From a virus (taxonomy: Duplodnaviria; Heunggongvirae; Uroviricota; Caudoviricetes), in IMG/VR virus record IMGVR_UViG_3300045988_142058: a stretch of 47,591 nucleotides of DNA; one strand, written 5' to 3'. Shown piece after piece: positions 1 through 47,591 of this stretch. The number at the start of each line of letters is the position of its first letter. Position 1 is the first letter of the stretch. The notes under the pieces were generated by a model that was not told where the DNA came from, searched no databases, and worked only from the letters and a program-made list of their open reading frames with translations. The translations under genes were made by a program, and so were the position numbers.

Positions 1-1517
1 GAGGTTGTCACGTACTTGTTATCGCCTGAGACATCAACTGACTTTGTTGCAGCAATTGATGCCATATTAATAGCCGAAGTTTGCCCAACCAGAGAATCGT
101 TGCAGACAAACTTTCCATAGGTAAAACCAAAACTATCCGTCCCGGTTTCGGGAACATCCATATTTGACGATCGCCCCCAACTGGCAGGGCTTTCCGAATT
201 GAGCATGTAGTTCGTTCTTTGCCCCTCAATAAGCAGGCCATCACGTTCAAATCGTGGCTCGTCAATGGCAGCCTCTGTCAGCACACCAGATTTATTTATA
301 TAGGTTGCTTTCGATGCGCGTTTAAACTTTACAACCTTATCGCCAGGCATCGTTATTTCATCATCACCAATAACAATCTTTTTATATGACGGCGAAAACC
401 CCGTAATCATATCCAGTGAATCGTTAAACGGTATCCACACATCAGGTAGCGGTTGAATAATCTTCCGGGCATCCTCCAGTGGCAATGCTTCGATATCCGA
501 GGCTGTTAAAGTAATATCTGACGAACCGTCAAATGAAACGTTGTTAATCTTCCGTGCAGTTTTTAATTTCGTTGCGGTGTCGGCGTTCCCCGTCAGTGCG
601 CCGTTGAGTCCGCCGTTGAAAATCTGGCGTTCACTCCATGTGTTAGCCGTGCTCAACAGGGGGATCTTTTCACCGCTTGTGCCGAGTTCTCTTAAACCAA
701 GGTACTGGATAACAGCAAGGACACTTGTTTTAGCCAGAATATTACGGCCGACTGACGTTAAATCAGCCAGGGCTACTGTGTCTTTACCGGTAAAGTACGG
801 CAATTTATTTGCAGCCGTCGCAAGTCCTGCCAGAGCGGTGAGCGTATCATCTGCTGGTTGTTTTTGCTTTGCTAGGTCAAACACTTCTTTGACGGCTTTT
901 GGCGTTGCAGCGCGCGTTTCAGAAGTACTGTTAGTGTCACTACTGAGTTGAACAATGCCTTTTGAGGTTAAAGTTGCATCAGGATGATTACGTGATTGCT
1001 CATGTTTTACAATGGCTTGCTTAAGTCGCTTTGCTGAAACAGCTAGGGAATCATCTGTACCTGCATCAATTTCTTGTTCATTAGCAAATCTTGCTACTCC
1101 AACAACAGTTTCGGTTGCGGGCGGGTTAATAAACTCAACATCACCAAATGTAATGTTTTTAGTATCAAGATTTTTAATTGCTATATCACTTGATATTAAA
1201 GCAATTGTAGAAGATGCTTTATTTATTATTACTTGTTCTTGCGAGTATACAGCAAACAATGTTCCTTTATTTGTATACAAACCTATTGTATGGACAACAT
1301 ACTCATCTTTACTATCATCCTTCGCAGTTACATGAATGGTATCAGGAGAAACGACTTTGCCTCCTATTGTGGTAAGTCGCTTTATTTCATCTGTTATTTC
1401 TGTTTGTGTGGTTGATGTGACATAATATCTACTACCTAAACCAACAGAAACGATCTCAACTTTATTTGTTCCAGTCTTGTTGGCATTAACCAGCTCCTGA
1501 CGCCCGGCGTCAGTCAT
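1..1517 (-). CDS. Tail fibre protein, N-terminal ~505 codons; gene continues across the circular junction into 46668..47591
   Basis: Minus frame open from ATG at 1517 (possible GTG at 1538 with AAGGA RBS) to position 1; absent from ORF track because no stop in window. Manual translation MTDAGRQELVNANKTG... contains fibre-type repeat [27 protein letters not shown]. Confidence 0.7.
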   Translation of the reverse strand, partial: MTDAGRQELVNANKTGTNKVEIVSVGLGSRYYVTSTTQTEITDEIKRLTTIGGKVVSPDTIHVTAKDDSKDEYVVHTIGLYTNKGTLFAVYSQEQVIINKASSTIALISSDIAIKNLDTKNITFGDVEFINPPATETVVGVARFANEQEIDAGTDDSLAVSAKRLKQAIVKHEQSRNHPDATLTSKGIVQLSSDTNSTSETRAATPKAVKEVFDLAKQKQPADDTLTALAGLATAANKLPYFTGKDTVALADLTSVGRNILAKTSVLAVIQYLGLRELGTSGEKIPLLSTANTWSERQIFNGGLNGALTGNADTATKLKTARKINNVSFDGSSDITLTASDIEALPLEDARKIIQPLPDVWIPFNDSLDMITGFSPSYKKIVIGDDEITMPGDKVVKFKRASKATYINKSGVLTEAAIDEPRFERDGLLIEGQRTNYMLNSESPASWGRSSNMDVPETGTDSFGFTYGKFVCNDSLVGQTSAINMASIAATKSVDVSGDNKYVTT

Positions 1518-1568
1518 CGTAAATAATAATTTACTCACGCTTAATTCCTTGAATTAACAAATCGCAAA

Positions 1569-2150
1569 TTAGCACTCACCAATTAATCGTACATAAGACA
1601 CAGGCTGGAAAGCACCGACAATACCAACACCACCTGAAACATTGGTTGCTTGCGAAAATGTAAATAGTGTTCTTGCCGACTTTGCACTCTTGATACTTCT
1701 TAACGTATCCTCCAACATCTCTTTCGAAGGAACAGCACCATGAAAAGAGTTAATCGAAGCAACAATTGAGGCTGTATATGGTTCGCCAGGTGGTGATGTT
1801 TCAAACCATTCTGTTATGTTTACCTCTCCACCCAAGCTATTTACTACATCTTCAACCGCTGCCCTTGTACCCTTTATTCGCTTTGTTCGTATTATTGATT
1901 TAAAAACAGAACGCTTTAACGATACAGGCCAACTATCCCTCCATGTATCAGCATTCCATTGCCAAGCTAAATGATCGAGAACAACTGAGTCCAGGTTATC
2001 AACAACGCTATATATTTCTGTCTTATATATTAAATTGTTAATTGCTTGTAGTTCATCATCGATAGCTTTCGACATAGCTATCACGTTCGGATCTCTAGCT
2101 AAGTTAGGAGGTAAAACATCCAACAAGCTAACATTAAAGATATCAGCCAT
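1569..2150 (-). CDS. Tail/baseplate protein, P2 gpI-like
   Basis: 193 aa; sits between baseplate J-like gene and tail fibre, the P2/Mu gpI position; 8-nt overlap with upstream gene. Confidence 0.5.
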   Translation of the reverse strand: MADIFNVSLLDVLPPNLARDPNVIAMSKAIDDELQAINNLIYKTEIYSVVDNLDSVVLDHLAWQWNADTWRDSWPVSLKRSVFKSIIRTKRIKGTRAAVEDVVNSLGGEVNITEWFETSPPGEPYTASIVASINSFHGAVPSKEMLEDTLRSIKSAKSARTLFTFSQATNVSGGVGIVGAFQPVSYVRLIGEC

Positions 2151-3267
2151 CCTCTAACCCCGCATACTGGCAATTTATATTTCTCTCTCTGGCGACCTGC
2201 GTCTCTCCAACCACAGTAAATACAGGACTTGATATTTCTAATCTTTTAGCCCCAGCATTTTTTAAACGTTGAATAATTTCATCTGGATTTATATCTCTTC
2301 CCATAACCGAACGTTGCCATTGTTTATACTCATCAATAGCTTTCTCAACCTCACTTTGAATTAATGTTGTTCTGTTTTTGTCCGATGAGTTAATCCAGTA
2401 TTTAATTATTATATCGTATTCAATGCTCTCTGGTTTCTTAACAAGAACTTTATCTGTGAATGGTCGAATATTAGTTGCAGAGAGAACGCTATTTATCTGC
2501 TCCAATAGTTCATCAGAAGGTATATCTCCGTTCTCTAACAAAGAACGGATTTCTACAGTTCCGGGCGATGGTGTATATACATTCACATCTTTTATATTCT
2601 GATTGGCTGTTCTTGTCCAATATTTATAAGAATCCTCCGGCCCTGCTGTAGACAGTTTTTCCGGCGACAGTTTTATTCTTTCAGCATAATTATCATCTGA
2701 CTCTGTATCAGCACCAGAATTAGATGTTGTTAGATTCCTTACGCTAGAAACATACGGCAACGGAGTCACCAACTCATTTATTTGCCCTGGTAAAAAGCCA
2801 TTCCCCGATAAACCAGGTATAACAGCATATCCTGAGACTGTACCAACTGTTTTCCCAGCAGGTATTTCCAACAAAACATCTGTTTGGAAAATAACACCAT
2901 TTCCAGTTGAAACTTGAGTGCCAGAAGGTATTGTATATATCCCCGATAATTTTGTTGACAGATTAAACTCAAATGTAGTCAAGGCAGATTGAGCTTCCAG
3001 CCTAGGCGTATCCGTCAGATAGCCTATATGGTCGAGATATTCACCTTCACCATATGTAAGAAGGTTTTGTTTTGCAGAAAAATCGATAGCTTTTCTTTGC
3101 TGTATAATAATCTCACACAATGATAAGATGAATAATCTACGTGGATCAGCAGGTGCTAATGTTTCACCTGTTATACTCTCAAAAGCTCTGATTGAACGAG
3201 TTGTTATATCAGTCGGGTTAGAATCTGCGAAAGTAATATCTGGCAAACCACCACGCGGCAACGTCAT
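2143..3267 (-). CDS. Baseplate J-like protein
   Basis: 374 aa; size and position downstream of gpW-like gene match baseplate J family. Confidence 0.65.
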   Translation of the reverse strand: MTLPRGGLPDITFADSNPTDITTRSIRAFESITGETLAPADPRRLFILSLCEIIIQQRKAIDFSAKQNLLTYGEGEYLDHIGYLTDTPRLEAQSALTTFEFNLSTKLSGIYTIPSGTQVSTGNGVIFQTDVLLEIPAGKTVGTVSGYAVIPGLSGNGFLPGQINELVTPLPYVSSVRNLTTSNSGADTESDDNYAERIKLSPEKLSTAGPEDSYKYWTRTANQNIKDVNVYTPSPGTVEIRSLLENGDIPSDELLEQINSVLSATNIRPFTDKVLVKKPESIEYDIIIKYWINSSDKNRTTLIQSEVEKAIDEYKQWQRSVMGRDINPDEIIQRLKNAGAKRLEISSPVFTVVGETQVARERNINCQYAGLEDG

Positions 3268-3584
3268 TCTCTAACTCCTATCACAAGTTTTGGCCTAATA
3301 AAACCATCAGAAACGTCCGTTCTTTCAAAAGTAACAGAATGGATAATCGCTCTAGGCTCAAACTCACTAATTTTTTGAATTATTTCTCGTGTTGCTGTAG
3401 CAATAAAAATTGGACTGGGGCTATCAACAAGACTTGAATTAACTCCTAATTTTCTGGCATATGGTACAGTGCCTATCTGAGTATTAATAATAGTAGAGAC
3501 ATTTTGCAAAACTTCTTCTACAACTGTTTTGGGCGACCAATCAATCGAGTAAGAAGGTGATGATATGGTAAACGTATTATTCAT
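3264..3584 (-). CDS. Baseplate wedge protein, gpW/GP46-like
   Basis: 106 aa; overlaps neighbours by 4 nt; V-W-J-I gene order. Confidence 0.5.
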   Translation of the reverse strand: MNNTFTISSPSYSIDWSPKTVVEEVLQNVSTIINTQIGTVPYARKLGVNSSLVDSPSPIFIATATREIIQKISEFEPRAIIHSVTFERTDVSDGFIRPKLVIGVRE

Positions 3585-4048
3585 AATAATTTACCTAACG
3601 CACTTCTAGTTTTTGACTCTATATTGCCAGTAATATCAACTAATGCTTCTTTCAGAGAGGTCTGTCCGACTTCCTGTAATTTAATGCCAACGATAATCAC
3701 TCGTGGATTCCCAGTTGGACCGAAATAAGTCCATGATTCCTCTATATCTGTAATTATAAAATTACCAAAATACTGAATGCCAATTACAACAGGATTTACT
3801 TCCTGAATTGATTGCATTGTCCTAAGTAATGAAAGCGCAGCCAATGGAACAATGCCAAGTGTTGTATCCAACCGCATATTAAAACTAACTTCATCCAGAT
3901 CTGGACCTATATCCTCCAGAACAGGTTTAAGCCCAATAACATCATGGCGCGCTACACGACGCTTTGACGTCCTTTTAAAATTGTTGAACGTATTCACCAC
4001 TATTGATGAGGCAACAAAAGGCATTGTACCAAGCATACCCACAATCAT
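3581..4048 (-). CDS. Hypothetical tail/baseplate-associated protein
   Basis: 155 aa, translationally coupled within the baseplate cluster. Confidence 0.4.
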   Translation of the reverse strand: MIVGMLGTMPFVASSIVVNTFNNFKRTSKRRVARHDVIGLKPVLEDIGPDLDEVSFNMRLDTTLGIVPLAALSLLRTMQSIQEVNPVVIGIQYFGNFIITDIEESWTYFGPTGNPRVIIVGIKLQEVGQTSLKEALVDITGNIESKTRSALGKLL

Positions 4049-4665
4049 GCCTGAGCCTCCGTTGTCGGAGCGTATTCCCCCTGAGCTGTGTGATGGTGGC
4101 CTTTAGATTTAATCCCATCAACATCTATATCACCATCAACAACCTTAACATTCCCAGAAATTGTAGCTGCAACACCTCCAGCAGAAGATCCTTTCATTCC
4201 ACCTTTGAAGGTTAGTAATCCTTCAACTGTAGCATTTCCGGTAATGATGGTTTCTGGAGCATCAATAGTTACGGTTCCTGTAGCCTTAACGGTTACATCT
4301 CCGACAGCATCAACAAGGAGTAAATTAGATTCTCTGTCTATCTCAATACGAGTTCCGTTATTAAATCTAATGACGCGTTTATTAACAGTATTAGATGGCG
4401 GCTTCTGTGTTTCATCATAAAAACTACCAAGAATAAAACCTTGTTGCGGCCCTGCGGGATGAAAGATACACAAAACTTGCTCACCAATATCTGGCATCCA
4501 GTAATCAGCATTCTTATCTGTATTTTTCACAATAACTGATAACTTTGCCGAAGTGACGTTATCCTGATCATCGAAAGTAACTCTTGCTGTAACATCACCA
4601 TCATCAATATCAGAAACAACGCCAACTCTTATAATCTGACGTAATAATGTTTCTAAATCATTCAT
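4045..4665 (-). CDS. Baseplate spike/assembly protein V-like
   Basis: 206 aa; N-terminal OB-like region (VGVVSDIDDGDVTARVTF), Gly-rich beta-helical C-terminus with HHH. Confidence 0.6.
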   Translation of the reverse strand: MNDLETLLRQIIRVGVVSDIDDGDVTARVTFDDQDNVTSAKLSVIVKNTDKNADYWMPDIGEQVLCIFHPAGPQQGFILGSFYDETQKPPSNTVNKRVIRFNNGTRIEIDRESNLLLVDAVGDVTVKATGTVTIDAPETIITGNATVEGLLTFKGGMKGSSAGGVAATISGNVKVVDGDIDVDGIKSKGHHHTAQGEYAPTTEAQA

Positions 4666-4667
4666 AA

Positions 4668-5669
4668 TTAATACCCATTAATTACTCTTCGGATATCAAT
4701 CGAGGTGGTATAACCACTAACCCCAATTGAATGCACAGCTTTCGATATAAGATATTTTCCAGAAAATGAACCGAATCCGTCCAGATTTATAGTTACACCA
4801 GCTACCAATCTGGTGTCTCCAACCAATACTAAAGATCCGGTATTTTGATATCTATTTTTAAGCCGCAAAGCAGCCTTTGCCTTACGTTTTGCTTCATCTA
4901 AATTAGCTACCAGTTTTCTTATCTTAAGATTCGACCCTTCTTCTACGGATGGATCTACCCAAGTATACGAAAGCGACTTTCTTTTTTTAGGTACGCGATA
5001 TTTGCACGTGCAACTTTTATACAAATCTGTAGATTGTGTGCTAAAGCTATATCTGATTATCTCATCAATACCTAACGTAAGCGTAGCGATAGGATCTTTT
5101 TGCTCAAACATCTCTTGAGCAAATATTATTAATTGGCTATCAGTGACCTTTAACGACAACCCTTCATCCTGGCAAAGTCGATGGAGAAATTTTAAATCGC
5201 TTTCCTCCATTTGATCTTCACGCGCATAATATGGATTACTATCACCATCAATAAGAAACAACAGTTCAAGGTTAGCTAATTTAGCTATAGAAGTTGCTAT
5301 ATCTTTAAGAGTTGTTTTTTCCCATGCATTACTTTTTAAATCACGTCTAATGCCTGATGAAACAGGAACAGAAACAGCAGTCACCTCAACAACAGAAGGT
5401 GGTCCAGAGCAAGTTATGCCATCTACCTGGAATTTCCCGCACTCAAGGACGATTTGATTTATAGGCTTAAAGCTCAAATCAATAAAATCACCCTTTTTAG
5501 GTGTCCAGTCTCCAGACCATTTCCCATCATCATTTTTTAATATAATAGAAATATCATCGACCTGACCATCTTCATTATCTGTATAAGACATTGACAAAAC
5601 ATCAGGTGACATATGAGCGGTAATATTTACATTCTGATATATAACATCAAAAAGCGTTTTACGTAACAC
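4668..5669 (-). CDS. Tail protein, P2 gpD-like
   Basis: 333 aa; follows tape measure and gpX-like gene as in P2-type tails. Confidence 0.5.
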   Translation of the reverse strand: MLRKTLFDVIYQNVNITAHMSPDVLSMSYTDNEDGQVDDISIILKNDDGKWSGDWTPKKGDFIDLSFKPINQIVLECGKFQVDGITCSGPPSVVEVTAVSVPVSSGIRRDLKSNAWEKTTLKDIATSIAKLANLELLFLIDGDSNPYYAREDQMEESDLKFLHRLCQDEGLSLKVTDSQLIIFAQEMFEQKDPIATLTLGIDEIIRYSFSTQSTDLYKSCTCKYRVPKKRKSLSYTWVDPSVEEGSNLKIRKLVANLDEAKRKAKAALRLKNRYQNTGSLVLVGDTRLVAGVTINLDGFGSFSGKYLISKAVHSIGVSGYTTSIDIRRVINGY

Positions 5670-5877
5670 TATTGCGTCTCCACGGAGGCAAATTGTTTAC
5701 TGATATTGGCATAACCGGAGCATCAGGAACTTTAAGAATAATTCCCGCAGAAAAAAGCACCGTGAAGCGGTGCTCAGTATTAGCATCAATAAGAAGATAA
5801 GACAGGTACTCATTACCATACAACTTTAACGCGATACTATCCCATGAGTCCCCTTGAACCGTTCTATAATCATCCAA
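5659..5877 (-). CDS. Tail protein X-like (LysM-like fold)
   Basis: 72 aa; YRTVQGDSWDSIALKLYG motif resembles P2 gpX/LysM; directly after tape measure. Confidence 0.45.
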   Translation of the reverse strand: MDDYRTVQGDSWDSIALKLYGNEYLSYLLIDANTEHRFTVLFSAGIILKVPDAPVMPISVNNLPPWRRNSVT

Positions 5878-8662
5878 AACTTAATCTCCGTTGTTGGAAC
5901 ATATGAGCACTCAATTTCTTCTCAAAATCAGAATATCCAGCATCTAATGCTCTTTTAGCTGCCGCCTCAGTTTCCTTTGGTGAACCAGCCGGAAGATTGA
6001 TTACAGGTGAATAGGTTATTCCACCAGTCACAGCGTTAACGTTCTGGCGAGGTCCAGAAGTCCCGGCGGCAGATATCCCGTGAGGTGATAAATTTGATTG
6101 CCCGAACTTGGTTGCTATTGCATTTTGTAAGCTGTTATTCCTGCTAACACCTGATGCCAGAGTAGTCATTATTGCACCACCTGACTTTGTTAGCTGTGAG
6201 AATGGACCTTTTTTCGCGTCAGAGAACGGTAAATACTCACGTACAGAAGAAAAAACGCCTTTCACTTCATTAATTAAAGCATTTGCTTTTGATTTTATCC
6301 CAGTGATTAACGTCTCAATTATTTTTGCACCTGACTCACTCCAGTTTATTCCAGATAAATAAGCCGTTACAGATTGGAATGCTCTTATAAAGAGTCCAAC
6401 TGGTGAAAAACGCATAAAAACAGATACCAGTGTATCTATGATTTTCTTTCCTGTTTCGCTCCAGTTAATGCCAGAAAGGTAATTTGTTGTAAGTTTAAAT
6501 GCTTTAATTAAGAACGGAAGCGGAGACATCCATTTAAAAGCACTAATTAATGTACTGTAAATTCTTACTCCTGCCGAACTCCAGTTTATGTTGGAAAGAT
6601 AATCCCATGCTTTACCAAACATAGATATAATCCATCCATTGAGGTCAAAGTTTAAGATAAAGTTTTTTATAGCCTCAAATGATTTAACTGTATATTCCTT
6701 AACAGAAGGCCAAACTCTGACAGCATAATCTCTGATCTTATCCCAATTCTGATAGAGCAATATTCCTGCGGCAACCAGTGCAGATATAGCCATCTGAATC
6801 CACCCGAAGGGTGTTAGCTTTGTCGCTACAGATAAAGCCAGCATAGCTACCCTACACGCTATAACCACACTTTTCATGGTTAGAAACGCACCTGCCGCCA
6901 TCACAATCTGAGACACAAAATTGGGGTTGTTAGCTACAAATTCACTAATTTTTGTAATCAGCGGAACCAAAACACTAAGCGCGGCATTCAAAGCTGGTTG
7001 CAAGGCCTGACCAAAACTTAATGATGCATTGCTAGCCTGAATACGTAATTGTTTCAATCGCTCCGCATTGTCTTTCGTTATATTGGCAAAATCGCGGTCA
7101 ATAACAGCACTTCCAGCCCCAAGAGATGTTGCTTTGATTCTCTGGTATTCCTTCCAGTTTTGAATCATCGGACGAACAAAGTTCTGAACCTGCATATCGC
7201 CAAATAGCTCACCAAGTAACTTCTGATCTCCGTTCTTAGTCATTTTCATGACAGAATGCATTGCAGCTTCGAATGGATTCTTCCCTTTTTTCTGCGCTGT
7301 TGTGACAATTTTATATAAATCTACACCGAAATTTTTCTTTGCTTTTTTTAGTGTTTCAGGGGAAAGTATTTTCGCCAAAAAGTTGTTCATATTATTAGCA
7401 GCCTCATCCGAAGTTGCAGCACCTTTGCGAGCTATCTGCAAAGCTGCCCCCATCGTCGCGGCGGCTTCTTTACCTCCCATTTTTAATGCCTGGAACTGAG
7501 CACCAAGCACAGGAAGATTTTTGGCCATATCTTTAAATTCAAAGTTTCCCTCTTTCCCTGCCTGAACCAGAATCCCCATTGCAGACTTCATTTGAGATGG
7601 ATCAATCTTCAATGAGTCACTTAATGTAAATGATGCTTTCGAGACATCGAGGATATCAGAGCCAGTAGCTGTAGCTGTTCGCCCAATAGTTAGTAGATTC
7701 GCCTGAGCCTCTTTATAATCCTGCCCAGCAGCGACGAGAAAACCCTGAGCGGCCTGAATATCAGATGCAAACTGGTTGGTGGCCGTTCCGGTAACAAGCA
7801 TCGCCTGCCCCATCGCCTGAACTTCTTCCGGCTTCATATCTGCCGTAAGACCAATCATTTTGTTTTCACGATTGAAATTTGCTGCATTGTTAGCAGCAGC
7901 AAATGCACCAGCCGCTACAGCACCAGTTTGTAATCCTGACCTTACAAGTTGACTCTTTGCCTCACCAAGATGCTCTCGCTTCAATTCACGCTGCCTTTCC
8001 AACGCGCGGTTTAACTCCTCCTGAGCACGTTTTACTGCAAGAACATTTTTCCGTGCTTCAGCCAACGCATTTTTATAGCTGTTAATTTTATCAATACGTT
8101 GTTTTTCTAATGCCCGGTTAAGTTCCTCCTGCTGTTTTTTCACTTGCTGAACATTTGCTCTGGCTAAAGCCAAAGCTGTTCTGTAGCGGTTAACCTGCTC
8201 AACGCTACGGGCCTGAGCCTCACGATTACGATCAATGCTTGCTTTAAGCTCTTTCTCTCTTGAGGCCAAAGCTCTGGCAGATGTATCAGCTCCCTGATAC
8301 GCAGACTTTAAAGCGGCCAGTTCTTCACGCTGAGAACGTAGTGATGCTCGTAAATTTGATGAATGTGTTTTTGCCTTCTCAAAGTCACGAAGCATCGCTC
8401 TGGTTGGATTGGCCGTGTTTTTTATTTGCTTCTGTAACTCTTCAACGCGAGCGGCAGCTTTATGATATTCGAGGGCAGTCTGTCCAACCTTTACTTTTAC
8501 AGATTGTAGCTTTTGAATTTCCCCATGTTCTTTCGTTAATCCAGCAAGCTCGGCATTTAATTTAGCAACAGCCTGATTAGCTGTAGTAAAACTTTTGGGG
8601 AGAGAGGCGGCAACTTTGCCGCCAATTTCAAAAGCCAGCTTAAAGTTCTTATTGCTGGCCAT
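5870..8662 (-). CDS. Tail tape measure protein
   Basis: 930 aa; coiled-coil N-terminal third with repeated QQVKKQQEELNRALE segments, hydrophobic middle, repeated W-rich C-terminal motifs; follows chaperone pair. Confidence 0.8.
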   Translation of the reverse strand: MASNKNFKLAFEIGGKVAASLPKSFTTANQAVAKLNAELAGLTKEHGEIQKLQSVKVKVGQTALEYHKAAARVEELQKQIKNTANPTRAMLRDFEKAKTHSSNLRASLRSQREELAALKSAYQGADTSARALASREKELKASIDRNREAQARSVEQVNRYRTALALARANVQQVKKQQEELNRALEKQRIDKINSYKNALAEARKNVLAVKRAQEELNRALERQRELKREHLGEAKSQLVRSGLQTGAVAAGAFAAANNAANFNRENKMIGLTADMKPEEVQAMGQAMLVTGTATNQFASDIQAAQGFLVAAGQDYKEAQANLLTIGRTATATGSDILDVSKASFTLSDSLKIDPSQMKSAMGILVQAGKEGNFEFKDMAKNLPVLGAQFQALKMGGKEAAATMGAALQIARKGAATSDEAANNMNNFLAKILSPETLKKAKKNFGVDLYKIVTTAQKKGKNPFEAAMHSVMKMTKNGDQKLLGELFGDMQVQNFVRPMIQNWKEYQRIKATSLGAGSAVIDRDFANITKDNAERLKQLRIQASNASLSFGQALQPALNAALSVLVPLITKISEFVANNPNFVSQIVMAAGAFLTMKSVVIACRVAMLALSVATKLTPFGWIQMAISALVAAGILLYQNWDKIRDYAVRVWPSVKEYTVKSFEAIKNFILNFDLNGWIISMFGKAWDYLSNINWSSAGVRIYSTLISAFKWMSPLPFLIKAFKLTTNYLSGINWSETGKKIIDTLVSVFMRFSPVGLFIRAFQSVTAYLSGINWSESGAKIIETLITGIKSKANALINEVKGVFSSVREYLPFSDAKKGPFSQLTKSGGAIMTTLASGVSRNNSLQNAIATKFGQSNLSPHGISAAGTSGPRQNVNAVTGGITYSPVINLPAGSPKETEAAAKRALDAGYSDFEKKLSAHMFQQRRLSFG

Positions 8663-8667
8663 TAGTA

Positions 8668-8850
8668 TTAATCCTCATTAAACACGTCAATCCATGCGAC
8701 GATTCGCCTCAACCGAAGCGAAAGCCAGTAGGATATAGGTGTTGATTGAGATGATTGAGATAGAGAACTCGCGGCCCTCATTATTTGCTTATCAATAGGT
8801 TTTTGCTCATCAAAACCTACGAGAGCAAAAAATTCTGTACCTTTTGGCAA
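8668..8850 (-). CDS. Frameshift extension of tail assembly chaperone (E'-like, -1 frame)
   Basis: -1 frame ORF overlapping 3' end of 8817..9098; reading FFALVG... after slip at heptamer 8826..8832. Confidence 0.5.
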   Translation of the reverse strand: MPKGTEFFALVGFDEQKPIDKQIMRAASSLSQSSQSTPISYWLSLRLRRIVAWIDVFNED

Positions 8851-9098
8851 ACTTTAACAAAGTCTTTCGCTGGCAATCCATTCAGATACTCTATCGGACG
8901 GCCAATACAGCGAGCAGCCAGAGCAACGTGGACTTTATGATCAAGTGATGTTTGAACTGTAACATGCCCTTGAGATTGTAGTAAGTCCGATACTTCTAAA
9001 ATATCGCTGCCTTTTAGGTTGTCTAAATCAAGGTTGAGTTCAGTCACCGGCTCGAAGTCTTCAAAACGATACTCTTTACTTAATTTAACGGTTTCCAT
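8817..9098 (-). CDS. Tail assembly chaperone, gpE-like
   Basis: 93 aa between tube and tape measure; ends in slippery T_TTT_TTG. Confidence 0.55.
   Translation of the reverse strand: METVKLSKEYRFEDFEPVTELNLDLDNLKGSDILEVSDLLQSQGHVTVQTSLDHKVHVALAARCIGRPIEYLNGLPAKDFVKVCQKVQNFLLS
8826..8832 (-). other. Putative -1 programmed frameshift slippery heptamer T_TTT_TTG
   Basis: Zero-frame codons aaT TTT TTG two codons before chaperone stop; -1 frame continues 58 codons to 8668. Confidence 0.5.
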
Positions 9099-9107
9099 TT
9101 TGTCACC

Positions 9108-9629
9108 TTATAAACCTAAATCATCACGAACGCTTTTTAATATATCTTCACCATCGAAGATACAAATAAAGTTCAATTTATCAATTTCCAGGACTTCTTT
9201 TCCATCAATAAATAATTTGATATAGAGAACTTCAAATTCATTCTCTGAATCAGTAGCCTTTGCCACCTGTAGCGAACCTAAATCCAGTTTTTTAGGGTTT
9301 AGCTTCATTGAAGCCCGAATGGGAACCGTTTTATATTTTCCTGTTCCGGCATCATAAACCTGCTGGCTACCACGAAAATCTACCTGATGCGATGAGGATA
9401 GAAATAATTTTGTACCAGCAGAGGTTAGGGTTCGCCATTTAAGAGAGACGGTCATTGGTTTGAAATGCCCCAGCGTTCCGCTCTCAAGCTCTCCAGCAAT
9501 ACCTGCACCACTAACTGTCTCTGTCATCATCTCGATTGATGGCAGCTTTGCGTCAGCAACACCGATAATACGGTTTCCCTCACCGTATACTGTAAAGTTA
9601 ATAAGTCTCTCAGGAATTTGATTGCTCAA
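9108..9629 (-). CDS. Tail tube protein
   Basis: 173 aa immediately downstream of sheath gene. Confidence 0.6.
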   Translation of the reverse strand: MSNQIPERLINFTVYGEGNRIIGVADAKLPSIEMMTETVSGAGIAGELESGTLGHFKPMTVSLKWRTLTSAGTKLFLSSSHQVDFRGSQQVYDAGTGKYKTVPIRASMKLNPKKLDLGSLQVAKATDSENEFEVLYIKLFIDGKEVLEIDKLNFICIFDGEDILKSVRDDLGL

Positions 9630-9645
9630 AGCAACCTCCTATTAT

Positions 9646-29398: not shown

Positions 29399-29400
29399 AG

Positions 29401-37200: not shown

Positions 37201-37206
37201 TAATCG

Positions 37207-37900: not shown

Positions 37901-37921
37901 ACCGCGTTAGCGGTTTTTTTA
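37901..37921 (+). terminator. Second intrinsic terminator in antirepressor leader
   Basis: ACCGC-gtta-GCGGT followed by TTTTTTT. Confidence 0.45.
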
Positions 37922-38082
37922 TGCGTAGAGCACTGTTACGCCCAAATTATGGTGGGTCGTACAGGGGCGGAGAAATCCGCGCCGGTTCGTCATTGTGTCC
38001 GGTAAGGCTAACCCTGTACGGCTCACCACCATTTGATTAGCCTCGAATGGCGGTGATAGTTCCATATACTGGAGATATCACA

Positions 38083-38274
38083 ATGACAAACCTACCCCAT
38101 GACTATTACGTCAACCTCGTAAAGATCCTTCTCAAGAAAGCCTCATACGCCGATAAATTCCGCCTGGCTGAAATCATCGAGCGCGAAGCTATGCGCATCG
38201 CCAGCAACGATAACGCTGTTTCTGACGCAAAAATCTCCCTCGTAACCAAAGTAGTTATGGGAGGTGCAAAATGA
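38083..38274 (+). CDS. Hypothetical small protein upstream of antirepressor
   Basis: 63 aa, GGAGA RBS, stop overlaps antirepressor ATG. Confidence 0.4.
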   Translation: MTNLPHDYYVNLVKILLKKASYADKFRLAEIIEREAMRIASNDNAVSDAKISLVTKVVMGGAK

Positions 38275-39452
38275 AAACGCTTCCGACCGTTAACACCCTA
38301 CAGCCTATCCTGCATAACCAGCTCCCCGTTATCACTACTGAACTACTGGCGCAATTGTATGGAACCGAGCGCCAACGTCTGACAAACAATTTCAATAGAA
38401 ACAAGGAACGTTTTATAGAAGGTAAACACTTTTTTAGGATAGAAGGTAAAGAGTTACGAGAGTTGAAGAACAAAAACTCTTTAAGAGTTCCTGTGAGAGT
38501 AGTTAACGAACCATCTTTAAGAGGGTTACAAATTCCCCCGAAAGTTCGCTCCCTCATCCTCTGGACAGAACGCGGGGCTGCACGTCACGCCAAAATGCTT
38601 GAAACTAACCAAGCGTGGGATGTGTTCGAACGGCTGGAAGACTGCTATTTCAACCAGAACGCACAAACGGCCGCGACCGTTACCGTCTCGCCAAGCAATG
38701 CTCGTGAGGTTGTCGATACGCTCAACGCCAAACCGATGTTTTACATTAAGGTGTGCAATAACGAGCCACTCACAACCTCAGCCGATGTTGCCCAGGCATT
38801 CAGCACCACAAACAATTCCATCGTTATGGCCATCGATGCGTTACGCATTCCTCGCACAGCTGCGGCGCGTCATTTCTTTAAAGAGCAACGACCGTTGGAA
38901 GGAAGCGACCGCGAAATAACAATCTATCGCATGACAAAAGACGGATTTACCTTGCTCATGGAGAGCATCGACGGTCCAAGCGTGAAAGATATCAAGCTGG
39001 CCTACATTGAAGCCTTTAACGCTATCAGCAGCGTGTTAAAAACACAGTACGAGCGTGATCTGGCTAAACGACTGTACCAAGAAAAAACGATTATCCGCGC
39101 GGCAACAGAGCATAATCGGCTATTAACGGAACCGAACTACAGGAAGGAACTAATCAAGGAGTTTGACAAGGCAACAGGGAAAACCAAAGCGGCGCTAAAT
39201 CTGCCAGCAATGACTCAGGAAAATGTGATATCAGCCTTACTTCTTGATCTGCTCAGAAACGCCAGAGCACTTATCAGCTTTGACGAAAACCTGAATCCTC
39301 AGCTCAAGCTACTACCACCGACAGGCAAAGTAGTCGACCAAGCTGATCACAACAGCATACTCAGCGTACTGGATGCAAACCTGCCAGCCAAGACACTACA
39401 GGATCTGATAAAAACATGTGCTGATAAGCTGGCACAGAAAAGCAGACCATAA
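38271..39452 (+). CDS. Antirepressor (ORF6N/ANT N-terminus, Rha-like C-terminus)
   Basis: 393 aa; N-terminal LPVITTELLAQLYGTERQRLTNNFNRNKERF; terminator after stop. Confidence 0.75.
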   Translation: MKTLPTVNTLQPILHNQLPVITTELLAQLYGTERQRLTNNFNRNKERFIEGKHFFRIEGKELRELKNKNSLRVPVRVVNEPSLRGLQIPPKVRSLILWTERGAARHAKMLETNQAWDVFERLEDCYFNQNAQTAATVTVSPSNAREVVDTLNAKPMFYIKVCNNEPLTTSADVAQAFSTTNNSIVMAIDALRIPRTAAARHFFKEQRPLEGSDREITIYRMTKDGFTLLMESIDGPSVKDIKLAYIEAFNAISSVLKTQYERDLAKRLYQEKTIIRAATEHNRLLTEPNYRKELIKEFDKATGKTKAALNLPAMTQENVISALLLDLLRNARALISFDENLNPQLKLLPPTGKVVDQADHNSILSVLDANLPAKTLQDLIKTCADKLAQKSRP

Positions 39453-40597: not shown

Positions 40598-40978
40598 TTA
40601 CTTAACGAGGAATAAAAATGGTTTATTGTTCGGCGGTGTAATCGGGGCTGGCTCGCTTTTGCTCATGCGATCAGTGTACCAAGCCAACTCCTTGTCAAAG
40701 TAAGCCTGATTAAAATAGGCCATGAATGTAGTTTCAAATCCATAACGACCGCTAATACGCAGCATCTGATTGCCGTTCTCTGTTTCCAGATATACCTGGG
40801 CACGTTCCTGATTCTCCTTCAGCCAGGTTAAAGCCTCATCGCATGAGGACACACGATACTCATCATCGTAGCCGTCATCGATGCGGCTTGAGGAAGAACG
40901 GCAAATCACGCCAACAGAACCAGCCAGGATAGTTTGAATTTTAAGGAAAGCGTTTTTGCGGATTTTAATCATGCTCAT
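40598..40978 (-). CDS. Hypothetical protein, first gene behind cassette copy 3
   Basis: 126 aa; ATG at 40978 preceded by cassette RBS. Confidence 0.45.
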   Translation of the reverse strand: MSMIKIRKNAFLKIQTILAGSVGVICRSSSSRIDDGYDDEYRVSSCDEALTWLKENQERAQVYLETENGNQMLRISGRYGFETTFMAYFNQAYFDKELAWYTDRMSKSEPAPITPPNNKPFLFLVK

Positions 40979-41087
40979 CGGGTTATCTCCGGTTTAACCA
41001 GGGCGGGTATCGCTCGGTTTCGGGTATAACCTTAGGAAATTTTTTCCCACCTGTAAAGCACTTTTTATATAAATCTATAATTATATA
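40979..41087 (-). promoter_or_regulatory. Promoter-leader cassette copy 3
   Basis: One substitution relative to copy 1; heads operon 40598..40978 plus HTH gene. Confidence 0.6.
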
Positions 41088-41245
41088 AATAATAGTAACT
41101 GGTGTTTTTTTAGGCGAAGCATTAAACATTTTTGTTTAGCTTATTGGCAAGGTCTTGAAAAAGACATTTCAGCAATGCTATACCATTGAACATGGTATCG
41201 GCTGAATTTTGTAATTAACACATTTTAAACAATTTGAGGTGCCAA

Positions 41246-41563: not shown

Positions 41564-41863
41564 TTAGACATGGAACGCTACTCGCTTTCCTGTAGGAAGC
41601 TCAACATCCAGGCTTAATTTGCCTCCCATAGCTTCAACGTAACGCTTTAATGTCGCCAGCTTTAAATCATTTCCGCGCTGCTCCAGCTTTGTTACTGCTG
41701 GCTGGCTTATACCCATCGCCTCAGCAACCTGTTTTTGTGATAACTGGAGTTCTTCACGCATCATCTGCAAGCCGACCTCAAGAATCATCTCATCTGCCAT
41801 TTCTTTAATTCGCGCCTGGCTTTCAGGTGAACGGCTGGCAATCACCTCATCTAATGTTCTCAT
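41564..41863 (-). CDS. HigA-like antitoxin (XRE HTH)
   Basis: 99 aa; HTH LSQKQVAEAMGISQPAVTKLEQ; downstream of and coupled to toxin gene. Confidence 0.65.
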   Translation of the reverse strand: MRTLDEVIASRSPESQARIKEMADEMILEVGLQMMREELQLSQKQVAEAMGISQPAVTKLEQRGNDLKLATLKRYVEAMGGKLSLDVELPTGKRVAFHV

Positions 41864-42210
41864 TACTTGCTCTCCAGTGTGTTCAGATGTGCTGCAAACT
41901 CATCCTCAGCTATACGCACCAGTTTTTCATAAAACCGTTTATCGTTACTTTTGTCTCCTGCACAAAGAACGATGGCCCGGCGAATCGGATCGAACGCATA
42001 AAAGGCTCTTATCGGACGGCCAGAAAACTGAACGCGAAGCTCTTTCATATTTTTGTACCGAGAACCTTTTACGGTATCGGCATATGGCCTGGGTAACTCA
42101 GGTCCGTAAACCTGTAGCTTTTTCAAATCAGCCAAAACCTTTTCCTGAAGAGCGTCTTCTTGCTCATTTAGCCAGTCGTCAAATCGCTGGCTAAAAAGTA
42201 CCGTCCACAT
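41863..42210 (-). CDS. RelE/HigB-like toxin (phage Gp49-like)
   Basis: Start at ATG 42210 (AGGA RBS); toxin-first gene order. Confidence 0.6.
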   Translation of the reverse strand: MWTVLFSQRFDDWLNEQEDALQEKVLADLKKLQVYGPELPRPYADTVKGSRYKNMKELRVQFSGRPIRAFYAFDPIRRAIVLCAGDKSNDKRFYEKLVRIAEDEFAAHLNTLESK

Positions 42211-42243
42211 GCTCAATCCTATAACCTGTAGTTTATATCACTA

Positions 42244-43674: not shown

Positions 43675-44523
43675 TTAATGTTGGAGTGATTTCCAGGTCT
43701 TTCTTAACCTGTTATAACGCTGCTCAACGAGGGATCGTAAATATGCAAGGTCAGCTCCAGGATACATGCCATCAGCAAATTCCTGGCTAACCTCTCTAGT
43801 GATTTGATGACGAAGTTCGGCCTCTCCCTTTTCCCGAACAAGACGCGCAGCTCTCTCCGCTGCTTTCTGTTTTGCCTTTATCTCTCTGGCCGTCTTCCTC
43901 TGACGCCATACATTCTCCATCTGCTCCTGAATAACAATACGCTTATAATCAGCCTCCGTTATCGCTTTTTTAAGCCGTTCGCTATTCTTCGCATTGAAGT
44001 AATTAAGTTTCTGGCTAACCGCACGTCTCCATGCTTGTTCAGTAATACCAACGGTTTCCAGCAGTTGATCACGAATCTCTATTTTCGCTGGCCAATACTG
44101 TTTATTCACCCGATCCCAGCGACGTTCATAATCAATAAAACCTAACTCTTTCAGTTGCGACAACGCCCTTGTACAGCGCGTTATAGACTTGTTCCCAGCT
44201 TCGGATACGGTAGACAGGCCGCAAAAATCAGCCAACGCCTCAGCACTGGCCAGAACCCGCTTAGAAATGATGTTTACATGGTGCAAAATCGCAGCAATCA
44301 CAGCATTAATTGCCCGACGACGATGCTCGTTTATCCGGCGTTTCCGCTCTGACGGTTGATTAACGTAGAACGCAACCTCACACGTAAGATCACGACCATT
44401 AATGCGCTGTAAAGCATCAGATAACACCAGCGGCAGCTTGTGCGTATGGTGCTTTGGAGGCTGGAACTCCGGCGACAAATTACAAACGTAAGCTGAACGT
44501 AGAGACGGCATTGGTCTATCCAT
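43675..44523 (-). CDS. repA: Replication initiator RepA, IncFII RepA1-like
   Basis: ATG at 44523 (MDRPMPSLRS...); block ...ALADFCGLSTVSEAGNKSITRCTRALSQLKELGFIDY... matches IncFII RepA1 pattern CGL-T-S-AG--SITR-TRAL--L-ELG-I-Y (from memory). Frame open upstream to 44685. Confidence 0.8.
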   Translation of the reverse strand: MDRPMPSLRSAYVCNLSPEFQPPKHHTHKLPLVLSDALQRINGRDLTCEVAFYVNQPSERKRRINEHRRRAINAVIAAILHHVNIISKRVLASAEALADFCGLSTVSEAGNKSITRCTRALSQLKELGFIDYERRWDRVNKQYWPAKIEIRDQLLETVGITEQAWRRAVSQKLNYFNAKNSERLKKAITEADYKRIVIQEQMENVWRQRKTAREIKAKQKAAERAARLVREKGEAELRHQITREVSQEFADGMYPGADLAYLRSLVEQRYNRLRKTWKSLQH

Positions 44524-44535
44524 ATGTTCGCTCTT

Positions 44536-44650
44536 GCGTCCACGGAAAACCAACGTATAATGGGAGTTGTCGAGGCGCCCATGGATATGTTTGTTGGTTT
44601 TCCGTGGATGTCGCAAGAAGCCCGCAGATTTATCTGCGGGCTTTTTGTTT
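44536..44650 (+). ncRNA. Candidate CopA-like antisense RNA in repA leader
   Basis: Plus-strand intrinsic terminator (9-bp stem 44620..44628/44633..44641 + TTTTTGTTT) antisense to repA leader; 16-bp stem-loop 44539..44608. 5' end not defined. Confidence 0.4.
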
Positions 44651-44690
44651 CCATATCTGGTCGTTTTCCAACCAGACACCCACAATCGTA

Positions 44691-44705
44691 ACCACGTTAC
44701 GTGGT
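44691..44705. promoter_or_regulatory. Operator-type ACCAC-gttac-GTGGT in repA leader
   Basis: Same half-sites and spacing as immunity operators; ~100 nt downstream of putative repA promoter. Confidence 0.5.
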
Positions 44706-44811
44706 TTTAAGAGAACTCTACCACAACACTTTCGGTCATGCACGAAGTCTCTCGCTAATCGAACGATAATCCACCAGTAAAAGGATCTAAATCGGATCTC
44801 GTGTTGCGAGC

Positions 44812-44861: not shown

Positions 44862-45389
44862 TTATTCTGGTTTGTCTGGCCATTCGGGGTTTGCTGTGTC
44901 CACGCGGCTGACAAGAACACTGTAGCGTTCCCATGCTTCCAGTCGTGTGCGTTCCTCGTCTGTTGCCATATTCAGCCTGACAGCGCGTTCCAGCGGCTGG
45001 ATGACTGATTCAGCTTCGGAAAGCAATGCGGCCTTTTGTGATTCGGCTTGTTGTTGCTGTTCGTCTGCCGTATAAATCCGTTTAACTACAGCTCCATCCT
45101 TAAACATCCACTTTCCTGAATCATCAGCGCGGCGGTTGGCTGTAATATCAGGAACCTCAACGACGCTAAAACCTTCAGGGTTAAGCGTGGAGGCATCTTT
45201 AGTGATGGCGACAATAATATTATTTGCATCGTAAACAATCTTTATTGTGTCTGGCTGAAAGTTTTTCACTTCCTCATACCAGTTTTTTCCGTCCTCAGAG
45301 TAAAGCCAGATAACTCCGTGTTTCTTTGTTAACTCATACTGTTCCAGTGTTTTAGCGTTACCCGCTTTTATGTTCTTTAAGTGCATCAT
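44862..45389 (-). CDS. Tail fibre assembly protein (Tfa-like)
   Basis: 175 aa after second fibre gene; C-terminal ...[13 protein letters not shown]. Confidence 0.6.
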
Positions 45390-45390: not shown

Positions 45391-46380
45391 TTAAACGCTC
45401 GCTACATTATACCAGGTGCCATTTATATACTTTTGAACGGGTCTGTAATAAACGCCCGCTATATTATCGGCAGAGTTGGAACCTGTATCCTGAACATTAA
45501 TACCAGACAATACATGACCTGACGGGCACTGGAAATTCCATGTTTGCCAGTTGTTTACTCCATAATATTGCTGTGAACCAAGTCGAACATCTTTCACATA
45601 ACGGGAATCAAAGTTACCGTAATCCGAGGGGTTAACACGCCCTGTAATATTTATGGTTTTATTACTTTGAATGCTGCCGGAGACAAAGCGCATAACATGG
45701 ACGTTATTAGCATAAACGTCCAGATTACCGTCGCCATTTTGTTTAAAGCCCGTGTCATTATCACCCAAAACAATCGAGTTACCGCCAAGAGCACTGGATG
45801 TTCCGATACCCAGTGCACCATTCAATTGACCACCAGATAACGACAGTGCACCGACATCTCCCGCTGTAGGTTTTCGCGTTGTGGTATAAAACTCAGACCA
45901 GTCAGCCTCGAATCCGTAACCGTCACGAGCAGAACGATAAAAAATACCGCCGTTATTATAATTAACGCGGAACTGGGCGGCGGGACAACTTCCTTCACCG
46001 ATATTAAAATGAAGAATTAACGTTGATGCCCCACCAATAGTTGCGTTATAGGCTCCGCTACTCCAGTTCCATCCAACGGCTTTATCATTCGCAACGGTAT
46101 CTCCTGTTTTTCCTGAAGCAAATGCACCAATATTTTTCGGCGTCAGGTTAATATCTGATGTTCCATCAAACGAAACGGAATTAATCTTTCTCGCGGTTTT
46201 CAGCTTTGTAGCCGTTGAGGCATTGCCGGACAGCTCACCAGAAATGCCACCAACAACTGTTAGATCACCAGTTATTGTGCCGCCTGAACTTTCCAGTTTT
46301 TTAGCAACATCACTCTTAATAGAGTCGATTTCTTTTTTCAGATTAGTTATATCTGCTGGTATCGTTGTCACTGTTGCCAT
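45391..46380 (-). CDS. Second tail fibre protein
   Basis: 329 aa; [27 protein letters not shown] shared with first fibre; Gly/Asn-rich distal region. Confidence 0.65.
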
Positions 46381-46389
46381 ATTAATTCC

Positions 46390-46668
46390 TTACGCCCATT
46401 CCCGCAGCGGTTGTTCTAATTTAACTTCAAAACCATCAAACATTTGTTGTTTCAAACTGTCGTTTAAAATACGAACATTAACAAAGAAGCCATCATTTTT
46501 AATCACTGTTGGTTCTTCGTTCTCGCCGTTTGGTATTTCGGTATATGTAATACCTACAACATCAAGAAGGATGTTGTTTTGCAGTTCTTCATTATCGTGC
46601 CAGGATATACTCTCTAAAAAAGAGTCGTATTCTTCCCTGTCTCTGAATTTCAACGTAATATCTTTCAT
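46390..46668 (-). CDS. Hypothetical protein (possible chaperone for first fibre)
   Basis: 92 aa directly after first fibre stop. Confidence 0.35.
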   Translation of the reverse strand: MKDITLKFRDREEYDSFLESISWHDNEELQNNILLDVVGITYTEIPNGENEEPTVIKNDGFFVNVRILNDSLKQQMFDGFEVKLEQPLREWA

Positions 46669-47591
46669 TAAATAACCTCAGCCATTTGTTGGTCTGTTAA
46701 TGCTTTATGCCATATTCTGAAATTCCTGATATGACCAAATAGATGACGTGCCCCTGATGTGGTTTGACCTCCTATTCTAATAAAGGTCCGCGTTTTTACG
46801 CCCGTCCATTCCGTTTCAATGGTTTTAGTAGCCTCACCGTTAGAAACTACTCGTTTAGTACCGTCAGAATAAATATTAAAACCACCAATGAATTTTCGAA
46901 CATCCGTTCGACCAGTAAACAAACTAGAAACGTAACTACTTGTCGACGCTTTATAAGTTTGCATATAAAGCTGACCGTAATATCTCTCGGTTGTGTTAAA
47001 AGCGTATGTGATTGACTCAATAGGCGGCACACCAGAAAAATCAAAAATACGCGGTGCTACATTAGGGGGAATATCGCCCCAATTCCTGTTAACCTCGACC
47101 AAACAAGTAAGCGGTCTGTTATAAATGTTGTTTTCGGTCGGGATCGTAACCATATCACTCGCACGAGTCGCCGCCGTCGTTCCTGATATAATAAAAGATG
47201 ATACACAAGGCCCATTTTCTACTTGTGGGGTGGCCAGATAAATATAGTCACCAGATACGGTTGCCCCGCCCTGCTTAGGAGAATACTGTATCTGAGAACC
47301 TATTTTTAACTCCCCATCAATTGCCTGAATTGTTGCCTCAGCAAAAATCCATCCTGTAGTTTCATCCTTCCTGACTCGTGCCGTAATTCTACCGGAAGCA
47401 CCACCTGTCATATTAATTTCAAGCGTTTGTGTATCAATATACGCATCACCAAGAAAAGTTGTTGCGCTACCGTCATACTTATCAAACCGTATACGTAACC
47501 TTACCTGTCGTTCTGTTTTAAAACGGCATGAGGTTGTCACGTACTTGTTATCGCCTGAGACATCAACTGACTTTGTTGCAGCAATTGATGC
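46668..47591 (-). CDS. Tail fibre protein, C-terminal portion (same gene as 1..1517)
   Basis: Same reading frame as 1..1517 across the 62-bp junction; complete gene ~2379 nt (~792 aa). Confidence 0.7.
   Translation of the reverse strand, partial: ASIAATKSVDVSGDNKYVTTSCRFKTERQVRLRIRFDKYDGSATTFLGDAYIDTQTLEINMTGGASGRITARVRKDETTGWIFAEATIQAIDGELKIGSQIQYSPKQGGATVSGDYIYLATPQVENGPCVSSFIISGTTAATRASDMVTIPTENNIYNRPLTCLVEVNRNWGDIPPNVAPRIFDFSGVPPIESITYAFNTTERYYGQLYMQTYKASTSSYVSSLFTGRTDVRKFIGGFNIYSDGTKRVVSNGEATKTIETEWTGVKTRTFIRIGGQTTSGARHLFGHIRNFRIWHKALTDQQMAEVI
47530..47591. repeat. 62-bp terminal redundancy identical to 1..62 (circular closure)
   Basis: Exact identity of the two window ends. Confidence 0.95.

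Follow-up and report, generated by a model that had tools for sequence, protein, structure and literature searches.

A 62-bp terminal overlap within the tail-fibre gene of a viral contig that is very probably a complete circular phage-plasmid of the p-p47 family

The duplicated ends and the tail-fibre gene across the join

IMG/VR record IMGVR_UViG_3300045988_142058 is a 47,591-nucleotide stretch of DNA from a virus (Caudoviricetes), and the whole of it is referred to here as the window. We examined its duplicated ends, the tail-fibre gene in which they meet, and the element that they close. Positions 1-62 were identical to positions 47530-47591, which was the longest exact overlap between the termini of the window. 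The 62-mer, to which no strand is assigned, occurred twice, once at each terminus, and its reverse complement did not occur in the window; the probability of such a 62-base match arising by chance (about 4^-62) is negligible. The right copy is redundant and is dropped upon circularising, and with the overlap collapsed in this way 47,529 bp of unique sequence remained. Both the identity of the ends and the unique length had been put forward in an original prediction, and exact comparison bore them out.

Once the overlap was collapsed, a minus-strand frame with 804 open codons ran from position 1553 past base 1/47529 as far as a stop at 46668. The tail-fibre gene in this frame has its 5’ part at 1-1538, starting at GTG 1538 or ATG 1517, and its 3’ part, which encodes the receptor-binding tip, at 46668-47529 (stop codon at 46668-46670). 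The original prediction had the fibre frame continuing in phase across the join. The frame is indeed open there, but the interval given for it, 46668-47591 followed by 1-1517, counted the 62 bp twice and comes to 2,441 nt, a length not divisible by three. The corrected join of 46668-47529 and 1-1517 measures 2,379 nt, or 792 codons and a stop. Since an AAGGAA Shine-Dalgarno sequence lies 7 nt upstream of GTG 1538, and the same start is annotated in near-identical RefSeq plasmids, GTG 1538, with a 799-aa product, is probably the likelier start than ATG 1517. Pfam detected a Phage_fiber_2 repeat in the join-spanning protein (E = 2e-18), which supports its designation as a tail fibre.

Three further genes on the minus strand separate the fibre gene from repA. 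Directly downstream of the fibre gene is a 92-aa open reading frame (ORF) at 46390-46668, a possible fibre chaperone, for which a Pfam scan returned no family. It is conserved in two closed circular plasmids, NZ_CP103765.1 (pMB9880_3, 48,945 bp) and NZ_CP020518.1 (unnamed2 of strain 222, 48,175 bp). A second fibre follows at 45391-46380, a 329-aa protein with a gp37_C-like domain (Pfam gp37_C, E = 4e-5), and then a tail-fibre assembly protein of 175 aa at 44862-45389 (Caudo_TAP, E = 1.4e-37). The gene order at the join, namely fibre, 92-aa ORF, second fibre, fibre-assembly protein and repA, was alike in both closed plasmids.

These two plasmids were also used to judge the join itself. From 47146 across the join to 23000, the window was 98.6% identical to NZ_CP103765.1 and 98.85% identical to NZ_CP020518.1, and in both cases the alignment was a single high-scoring segment pair of 23,384 bp with 0 gaps. 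Both plasmids were collinear with the window round the circle. For NZ_CP020518.1, 44,096 of the 47,529 bp were aligned, the rest being short replaced accessory segments. An exact 60-mer spanning the join was present in NZ_CP020518.1 and in 34 IMG/VR contigs; the source contig itself did not turn up in IMG/VR when 50-mers specific to the window were used. The join is authentic, and nothing has been lost or scrambled at it.

The fibre gene also contains a crossover-like motif of the Hin/Gin type, TTCTCTTAAACCAAGGTA, at 684-704, where it encodes LGLREL. Its sole inverted partner lay at 44698-44718 in the repA control region and was 86% complementary over 21 nt. When the Hin protein of the Yersinia phage vB_YpM_41 was searched by tblastn against the circularised window, no significant match was obtained (best E-value, 0.36). 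Both fibre cassettes of the window lie on the same strand. A fibre switch of the Hin/Gin/Cin kind has a serine invertase gene beside the fibre genes and an inverted pair of crossover sites around alternative fibre ends; the former was not found in the window, and of the latter there was only one good site. The idea that the join falls inside an active invertible fibre segment was rejected, because no invertase was found, the partner site lies in the repA leader, and both cassettes have the same orientation. The N-terminal portion of the fibre (about 220 aa) is common to the Yersinia phages, and homology to Yersinia phage record L001 stops at 859. The Yersinia phage relatives have a Hin invertase and an invertible fibre segment of about 3 kb (inverted repeats at L001 20189-20220 and 23274-23306, hin at L001 23377-23931); in place of the invertase system, two tandem fibre cassettes on one strand are present in the window and in some closed plasmids. 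The fibre arrangement of the window looks like a host-range switch that was lost or replaced.

A 176-nt stretch shared with lambdoid prophages and the origin of the overlap

The segment running from 47146 through the join to 455, which encodes the fibre tip, resembled the side-tail-fibre (stf) genes of lambdoid prophages at 87-95% identity. All 34 lambdoid contigs found in IMG/VR had one perfect run of 176 nt in common with the window, made up of 57 nt at 47473-47529 and 119 nt at 1-119 (the 62-mer and 57 nt beyond it), neither part having a strand assigned. In each of the 34, identity was exact over the 57 nt on either side of the 62-mer and broke off with mismatches at 47472 and 120, so that the 62-mer is the exact centre of the run (57/62/57). 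The block around it extends over about 866 bp and was about 87.5% identical to the lambdoid contigs; the 176 nt was the only exact run of at least 119 nt within this block, the next longest being 42 nt. At 99% identity or more, the 176-mer was found in 575 Escherichia coli records, and 1,207 of the 1,235 matching places were chromosomal. About 10% of complete E. coli genomes carry it on the chromosome, Nissle 1917 among them.

A cut made at random would strike the exact centre of the 176-mer with a probability of about 1/47,529, and would fall anywhere within it with a probability of 0.24%. The cut point of the contig is not arbitrary. Contigs broken at repeats end with sequence of length maxK when assembled by MEGAHIT or metaSPAdes, or of length maxK-1 when assembled by IDBA_UD, and the k values usually set in MEGAHIT include 119 (COBRA preprint, 10.1101/2023.05.30.542503). 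If a de Bruijn contig runs into a single repeat (length m) at either end, it would hold one vertex of length v inside the repeat each time, and the overlap of its ends would be 2v-m. For a repeat of 176 nt and the observed 62 bp, v would be 119 (2x119-176 = 62), a vertex length that would fit MEGAHIT with k = 119 or, equally, IDBA_UD with a maxk of 120. The contig would thus be a unitig bounded on both sides by the 176-nt stretch of the fibre gene, with the same stretch also present in the stf gene of a lambdoid prophage in the same sample. A co-resident prophage copy is plausible because the 176-mer is present in 575 E. coli records and is almost always chromosomal there. What we infer is which assembler and k were used, that a prophage was co-resident, and in what physical state the sampled molecule existed.

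Our initial view was a simpler one, in which an isolated graph cycle was written out from an arbitrary k-mer by a Velvet-type assembler and the 62 bp equal k-1 for k = 63. The value 63 is commonly used in assembly, 62 is 63-1, the duplicate is exact, and the conclusion of a complete circle would be unchanged. This view was dropped when the exact 57/62/57 centring became apparent, since an arbitrary start would have had to hit the very middle of the one long stretch in common with lambdoid prophages; we now regard it as improbable. A repeat-bounded contig would explain the overlap much better than an arbitrary cut of an isolated cycle. On either account the 62-bp duplicate is a by-product of the assembler and has no biological meaning.

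It was also considered whether the 62 bp could be a true direct terminal repeat of a linear virion genome, with T7-type ends or a short terminal redundancy. Direct terminal repeats between tens and hundreds of bp long do occur in some phages, and completeness tools based on such repeats treat them and assembly overlaps alike. Here, however, the sequence sits in the middle of an intact and conserved tail-fibre ORF and is single-copy in the closed plasmids, the terminase is of the gpA type that makes cohesive ends, and the position of the overlap is already explained by the shared 176-mer. We attach next to no probability to a terminal repeat.

The perfect run of 176 nt within an otherwise about 87% identical stf block may have arisen by recent gene conversion between the fibre genes of plasmid and prophage. 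Another proposal is that this island marks recent recombination or a favoured crossover site, by way of which phage-plasmid and lambdoid prophages could exchange receptor-binding tips or be joined for a time as cointegrates; we consider this unlikely. If it were true, the ambiguous closure of the contig would mirror genuine exchange between phage-plasmid and prophage in the population sampled.

The location of the ends bears on what the overlap can prove. The exact 62-bp overlap is a sign of circularity by the usual terminal-overlap measure, weakened here by ends that lie inside a repeat shared with other replicons. The original prediction had argued for a circle from the overlap and the in-phase ORF. 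That argument is insufficient by itself, in that the ends sit inside a repeat shared with chromosomal prophages, and overlap and ORF alone cannot separate a free circle from an element lying between two chromosomal copies of the repeat. Such a cointegrate would have arisen by homologous recombination between two copies of the fibre stretch, one of them in a chromosomal lambdoid stf gene. A contig bounded by the same repeat at both ends fits both resolutions of the graph, and the 176-mer is common on E. coli chromosomes. When complete E. coli genomes were searched with the head/terminase module (query 11400-19400), the module was detected in 72 of 5,426 genomes (about 1.3%) at 98.5-99.6% identity, and one of its 85 places was chromosomal. 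The other 84 were on plasmids, and the closed plasmids hold exactly this join. Moreover, the window carries a full set of replication, partition and addiction genes; no integrase was found, either in the RefSeq annotation of the collinear plasmids or in Pfam scans of the window-specific ORFs; and homology to the lambdoid genes beyond the 176 nt is only about 87%. A free circle is favoured by the identical join in closed plasmids, by the presence of 84 of 85 relatives on plasmids, by the genes for replication, partition and addiction, and by the failure to find an integrase; a cointegrate is very unlikely. An integrative temperate phage is likewise not what the window resembles, with no integrase found and the head module chromosomal at only one of 85 places.

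The remaining concern was a chimeric or incomplete circle, produced by a jump to a lambdoid prophage in the fibre region or by the dropping of a segment holding an invertase and alternative fibres. The window is about 1.5 kb shorter than vB_YpM_41 and is without its hin and inverted fibre cassette, and the join falls in a region with prophage paralogues. Yet the two closed plasmids show the same invertase-less arrangement without a gap over the join, both flanks of the 176-mer match plasmids at 98-99% and lambdoid genes at only about 87%, and the size of the window lies inside the 42-56 kb range of the p-p47 family of phage-plasmids, to which these relatives belong. We therefore consider a chimera or a lost segment highly improbable.

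The claims of a complete genome, a circular replicon and an assembly-made overlap were thus upheld, mostly through evidence other than that first offered for them. Contig joins made from end overlaps are hypotheses (COBRA preprint, 10.1101/2023.05.30.542503), and the window illustrates a methodological trap: an overlap shorter than the k of the assembler can come from a contig bounded by one repeat that is shared with another replicon. Calls of a "complete circular genome" that are based on overlap then need outside support from read pairs, long reads or closed relatives. As for the record, it should be trimmed to 47,529 bp, marked circular and labelled as a phage-plasmid of the p-p47 family, and the tail-fibre gene should be annotated across the origin.

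Replication, immunity and packaging functions

Replication of the element is assigned to a RepA initiator of the IncFII family on the minus strand at 43675-44685 (Pfam IncFII_repA, E = 7.5e-44), annotated as repA in NZ_CP103765.1 and NZ_CP020518.1. Its true start is probably downstream of TTG 44685, the Pfam match beginning at residue 63. Over the repA leader, on the opposite (plus) strand, structured-RNA matches at 44535-44653 mark a candidate CopA-like antisense RNA with hairpins and a terminator consisting of a GC-rich stem and a T-run. A ParA ATPase is encoded on the plus strand at 35996-36664 (Pfam CbiA/ParA/MipZ), and an 82-aa ORF next to it (36708-36956, plus strand) may, judging from its position, be the centromere-binding partner of ParA. 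On the minus strand lie a HigB/Gp49-like toxin at 41863-42216 (Gp49, E = 5.7e-23) and a helix-turn-helix (HTH) antitoxin at 41564-41863 (HTH_3, E = 4e-10). A full-length match to the ryfA RNA family was found at 37179-37475 on the minus strand (143.5 bits, against a gathering score of 80). Enterobacterial ryfA loci encode a small toxic peptide with an antisense RNA, and the match may be a second addiction module. No protelomerase gene, such as a linear plasmid prophage of the N15 type would have, was seen in the RefSeq annotation of the collinear circular plasmids or in the window-specific ORFs, a scan that was not exhaustive over all ORFs.

The immunity functions are on the plus strand. A CI-like HTH regulator is encoded at 34737-35393 (HTH_3). 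Further along are an isrK RNA at 37847-37920 (RF01394, 65.7 bits) and a C4 antisense RNA at 37945-38033 (RF01695, 70.8 bits), both scoring above gathering, followed by an antirepressor-like gene of the ORF6N/Rha type at 38271-39452 (Pfam ORF6N and Phage_pRha). With a C4 RNA (70.8 bits against a gathering score of 45) upstream of a predicted antirepressor gene, the region appears to be a P1-type immunity I (c4-icd-ant) module. The isrK, C4 and ORF6N/Rha arrangement is that of P1/P7 immunity I, in an element otherwise unrelated to P1.

Two repeated elements accompany these regions. A 20-nt AT-rich motif, TATAAATCTATAATTATATA, occurred 12 times with up to 3 mismatches, compared with 0.02 expected. 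All occurrences were intergenic (positions 25211, 26345-26372, 30922, 32131-32156, 35884-35984, 36665-36692 and 41068), several of them flanking parA. It may be a putative partition site, or else a putative dispersed operator for the repressor, comparable to the C1 operators scattered in phage P1. A longer element of 114 nt was present in three copies with 91-100% identity, at 25118-25231, 32038-32151 and 40975-41088. Read on the minus strand, each contained, in this order, an AT-rich motif, a promoter-like stretch, a conserved leader, a GGAGA ribosome-binding site and the ATG of one of three different genes. The copies look like one promoter and leader reused for three operons, and may also be module boundaries for recombination, as the alignments of relatives tend to break there. 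A tRNA-Met gene (CAT anticodon) was identified by ARAGORN and by the Rfam tRNA model at 26130-26205 on the minus strand.

The late region, about half of the window, was all on the minus strand. Its packaging and head module, including head-tail connector genes, occupies 11400-19958 and was assigned from Pfam and from the annotation of NZ_CP103765.1 and NZ_CP020518.1. It comprises a ParB_N protein (19368-19958), a 186-aa ORF that may be the small terminase (18817-19377), the large terminase TerL (16955-18811; GpA_ATPase, E = 7e-76, and GpA_nuclease, E = 2.5e-84), a gpW-like protein (16704-16943), the portal (15133-16707), a ClpP-type protease (14076-15164), a decoration protein (13683-14066) and the major capsid protein (12619-13662). 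The contractile-tail and baseplate module at 1569-11109 was assigned from the collinear genes of the same two plasmids over the ungapped 23,384-bp alignment, with the sheath at 9646-11109, tube at 9108-9629, tape measure at 5870-8662, a gpD-like protein at 4668-5669 and baseplate proteins V, W, J and I at 1569-4665. Lysis genes, two of the holin family and one GH108 endolysin, lie at 26774-27981 on the minus strand and were assigned from RefSeq annotation of collinear genes with DNA about 98-99% identical.

Upstream of the packaging genes is a non-coding stretch of 557 bp (19959-20515, read on the minus strand), a candidate cos region in which the cut probably lies near 20372|20373. The three Yersinia phage records each start or stop at this point or within 12 nt of it, the alignment of vB_YpM_44 reaching only to 20360. 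The ends of these records lie 414 bp upstream of their first gene, in a layout that resembles that of lambda. About 100 bp round the candidate cut was invariant in four relatives, and the whole of 19959-20515 was nearly so. Beyond it, at 20516-23248 on the minus strand, are ParB_N proteins (one at 22625-23248, and one fused to a methyltransferase domain at 21252-22631) and a 239-aa ORF with no Pfam family. Three ParB_N proteins (19368-19958, 21252-22631 and 22625-23248) thus adjoin the candidate cos and the terminase genes, and may act in packaging, partition or DNA modification; ParA is 13 kb away, with the 82-aa ORF as its only small neighbour.

Because the large terminase is of the lambda gpA type, virions most likely contain linear, cohesive-ended DNA, and the predicted cos ends are away from the join, probably near 20372. 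The original prediction had set a real circle against a packaged linear genome with defined ends. This was a false dichotomy, as a gpA-type terminase predicts cos-cut linear DNA in the virion; the check proposed with the original prediction had itself looked to a candidate cos region for the packaged ends.

From these genes a life cycle may be proposed. In lysogeny the element would be a low-copy circular plasmid, replicated by the IncFII-type RepA, probably under antisense-RNA control, segregated by ParA with a small partner protein, and stabilised by the HigB-like toxin-antitoxin pair. Quiescence would be kept by the CI-like repressor together with a P1-style circuit of C4 RNA and antirepressor. 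In the lytic state, the gpA-type terminase would cut concatemers at cos upstream of the packaging genes, near 20372, and the resulting linear virion DNA would be re-circularised through its cohesive ends after injection.

The p-p47 family and comparison with known systems

Together, the results make it very probable that the window is a complete genome copy, 47,529 bp in length, of a temperate phage-plasmid of the myovirus type belonging to the p-p47 family of E. coli, with an assembly overlap that comes from a repeat-bounded contig. Structural, packaging and lysis genes are present with replication and partition genes on one replicon, and no integration module was found, as in the general definition of a phage-plasmid. 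For the family itself, the window showed 97-99% identity to, and circular collinearity with, NZ_CP020518.1 and NZ_CP103765.1, and CP032086.1 was also matched. The p-p47 family consists of 118 elements with a mean size of 49.4 kb, including CP032086.1, and 109 of the 118 are 42-56 kb long, a range that includes the 47,529 bp of the window; the copy number is 1.2-2.6, cell-free phage preparations transfer the element, and a tail gene is required for this (Svedholm et al., bioRxiv 10.64898/2026.08.19.745698). In the same study, copy-up mutations mapped to a predicted CopA/CopT upstream of repA, and extrachromosomal maintenance and virion transfer were shown experimentally for p-p49.

Several observations weigh against this reading or parts of it. 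About 7% of the window was not aligned to the best closed plasmid and consists of mosaic accessory segments, and among the 85 places where complete E. coli genomes have the head module, one is on a chromosome. Upstream of repA, the Rfam CopA model gave no match at the gathering score or at E <= 1. With regard to cos, no IMG/VR contig ended at the proposed site (the four matches were all internal and hence uninformative), and the Yersinia phage records are flagged "circular", so that their start point may be a convention and not a mapped end. Finally, the account built on k = 119 and a co-resident prophage rests on the arithmetic of the overlap and on the 1-in-47,529 coincidence of exact centring.

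The records carrying the head module ranged from 32 to 94 kb among the 60 listed. One of them, NZ_CP032086.1 from E. coli ATCC 25922 (94,204 bp), has two head-module places and is roughly double the length of the 48,488-bp plasmid that other assemblies of this strain contain; a dimer or a duplication made in assembly is the probable cause. CP032086.1 is a size outlier in the p-p47 list (Svedholm et al., bioRxiv 10.64898/2026.08.19.745698). Membership of the pSLy3 group, at first considered for an enterobacterial phage-plasmid of about 48 kb, was rejected, pSLy3 being an SSU5-type siphovirus group of 85-134 kb.

Compared with the IncFII plasmids R1 and NR1, the window has a RepA of the same IncFII_repA family and a structured element with a terminator on the antisense strand over the leader. 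It differs in having no match to the Rfam CopA model, and MOB-suite leaves the replicon untyped. The likeness to lambda lies in a TerL with gpA ATPase and nuclease domains, followed in lambda order by gpW-like protein, portal, ClpP-type protease, decoration and capsid. However, this TerL shares only 28% identity with lambda gpA (over 92% of its length), the tail is contractile, an integrase was not found, and the position of cos is a predicted one.

P1 is the prototype of a circular low-copy plasmid prophage. The window resembles it in its C4/antirepressor immunity module, its contractile tail and the many dispersed copies of one regulatory motif, and the relatives of the window share with P1 an invertible fibre segment. 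In contrast, the backbones have no sequence relationship, the replicon of the window is of the IncFII RepA type where P1 has a RepA/iteron system, and the terminase is of the gpA (cos) type where P1 packages by pac and headful.

Much closer are the Yersinia phages vB_YpM_39, vB_YpM_41 and vB_YpM_44 (OR545053-OR545055, about 49 kb). Their identity to the window was 99.2% across a 19.5-kb structural module and 97-98% across most other parts, among them repA and the toxin-antitoxin pair. They carry Hin and the invertible fibre segment of about 3 kb whereas the window has neither, and the window fibre diverges after about residue 220. Since these phages, deposited as phage genomes, share the backbone at 97-99%, the backbone makes virions.

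The closest relatives are the p-p47 plasmids NZ_CP020518.1, NZ_CP103765.1 and CP009073.1 (the 48,488-bp plasmid of ATCC 25922), which have a collinear backbone with 97-99% nucleotide identity to the window. Their repA, parA, toxin-antitoxin, immunity, head, tail and lysis modules, their fibre arrangement and the sequence at the join are the same as those of the window. They differ from it only in mosaic accessory segments (about 7% of the window), for example at 28344-29409, 45623-46121 and 46772-47146. Members of the family can carry resistance genes; compared with the closed plasmids, the window is without a resistance gene or transposon. The finding of a circular replicon is therefore correct and ordinary: the kind of element was already known, and the window is one more member of a family that occurs in about 1.3% of complete E. 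coli genomes.

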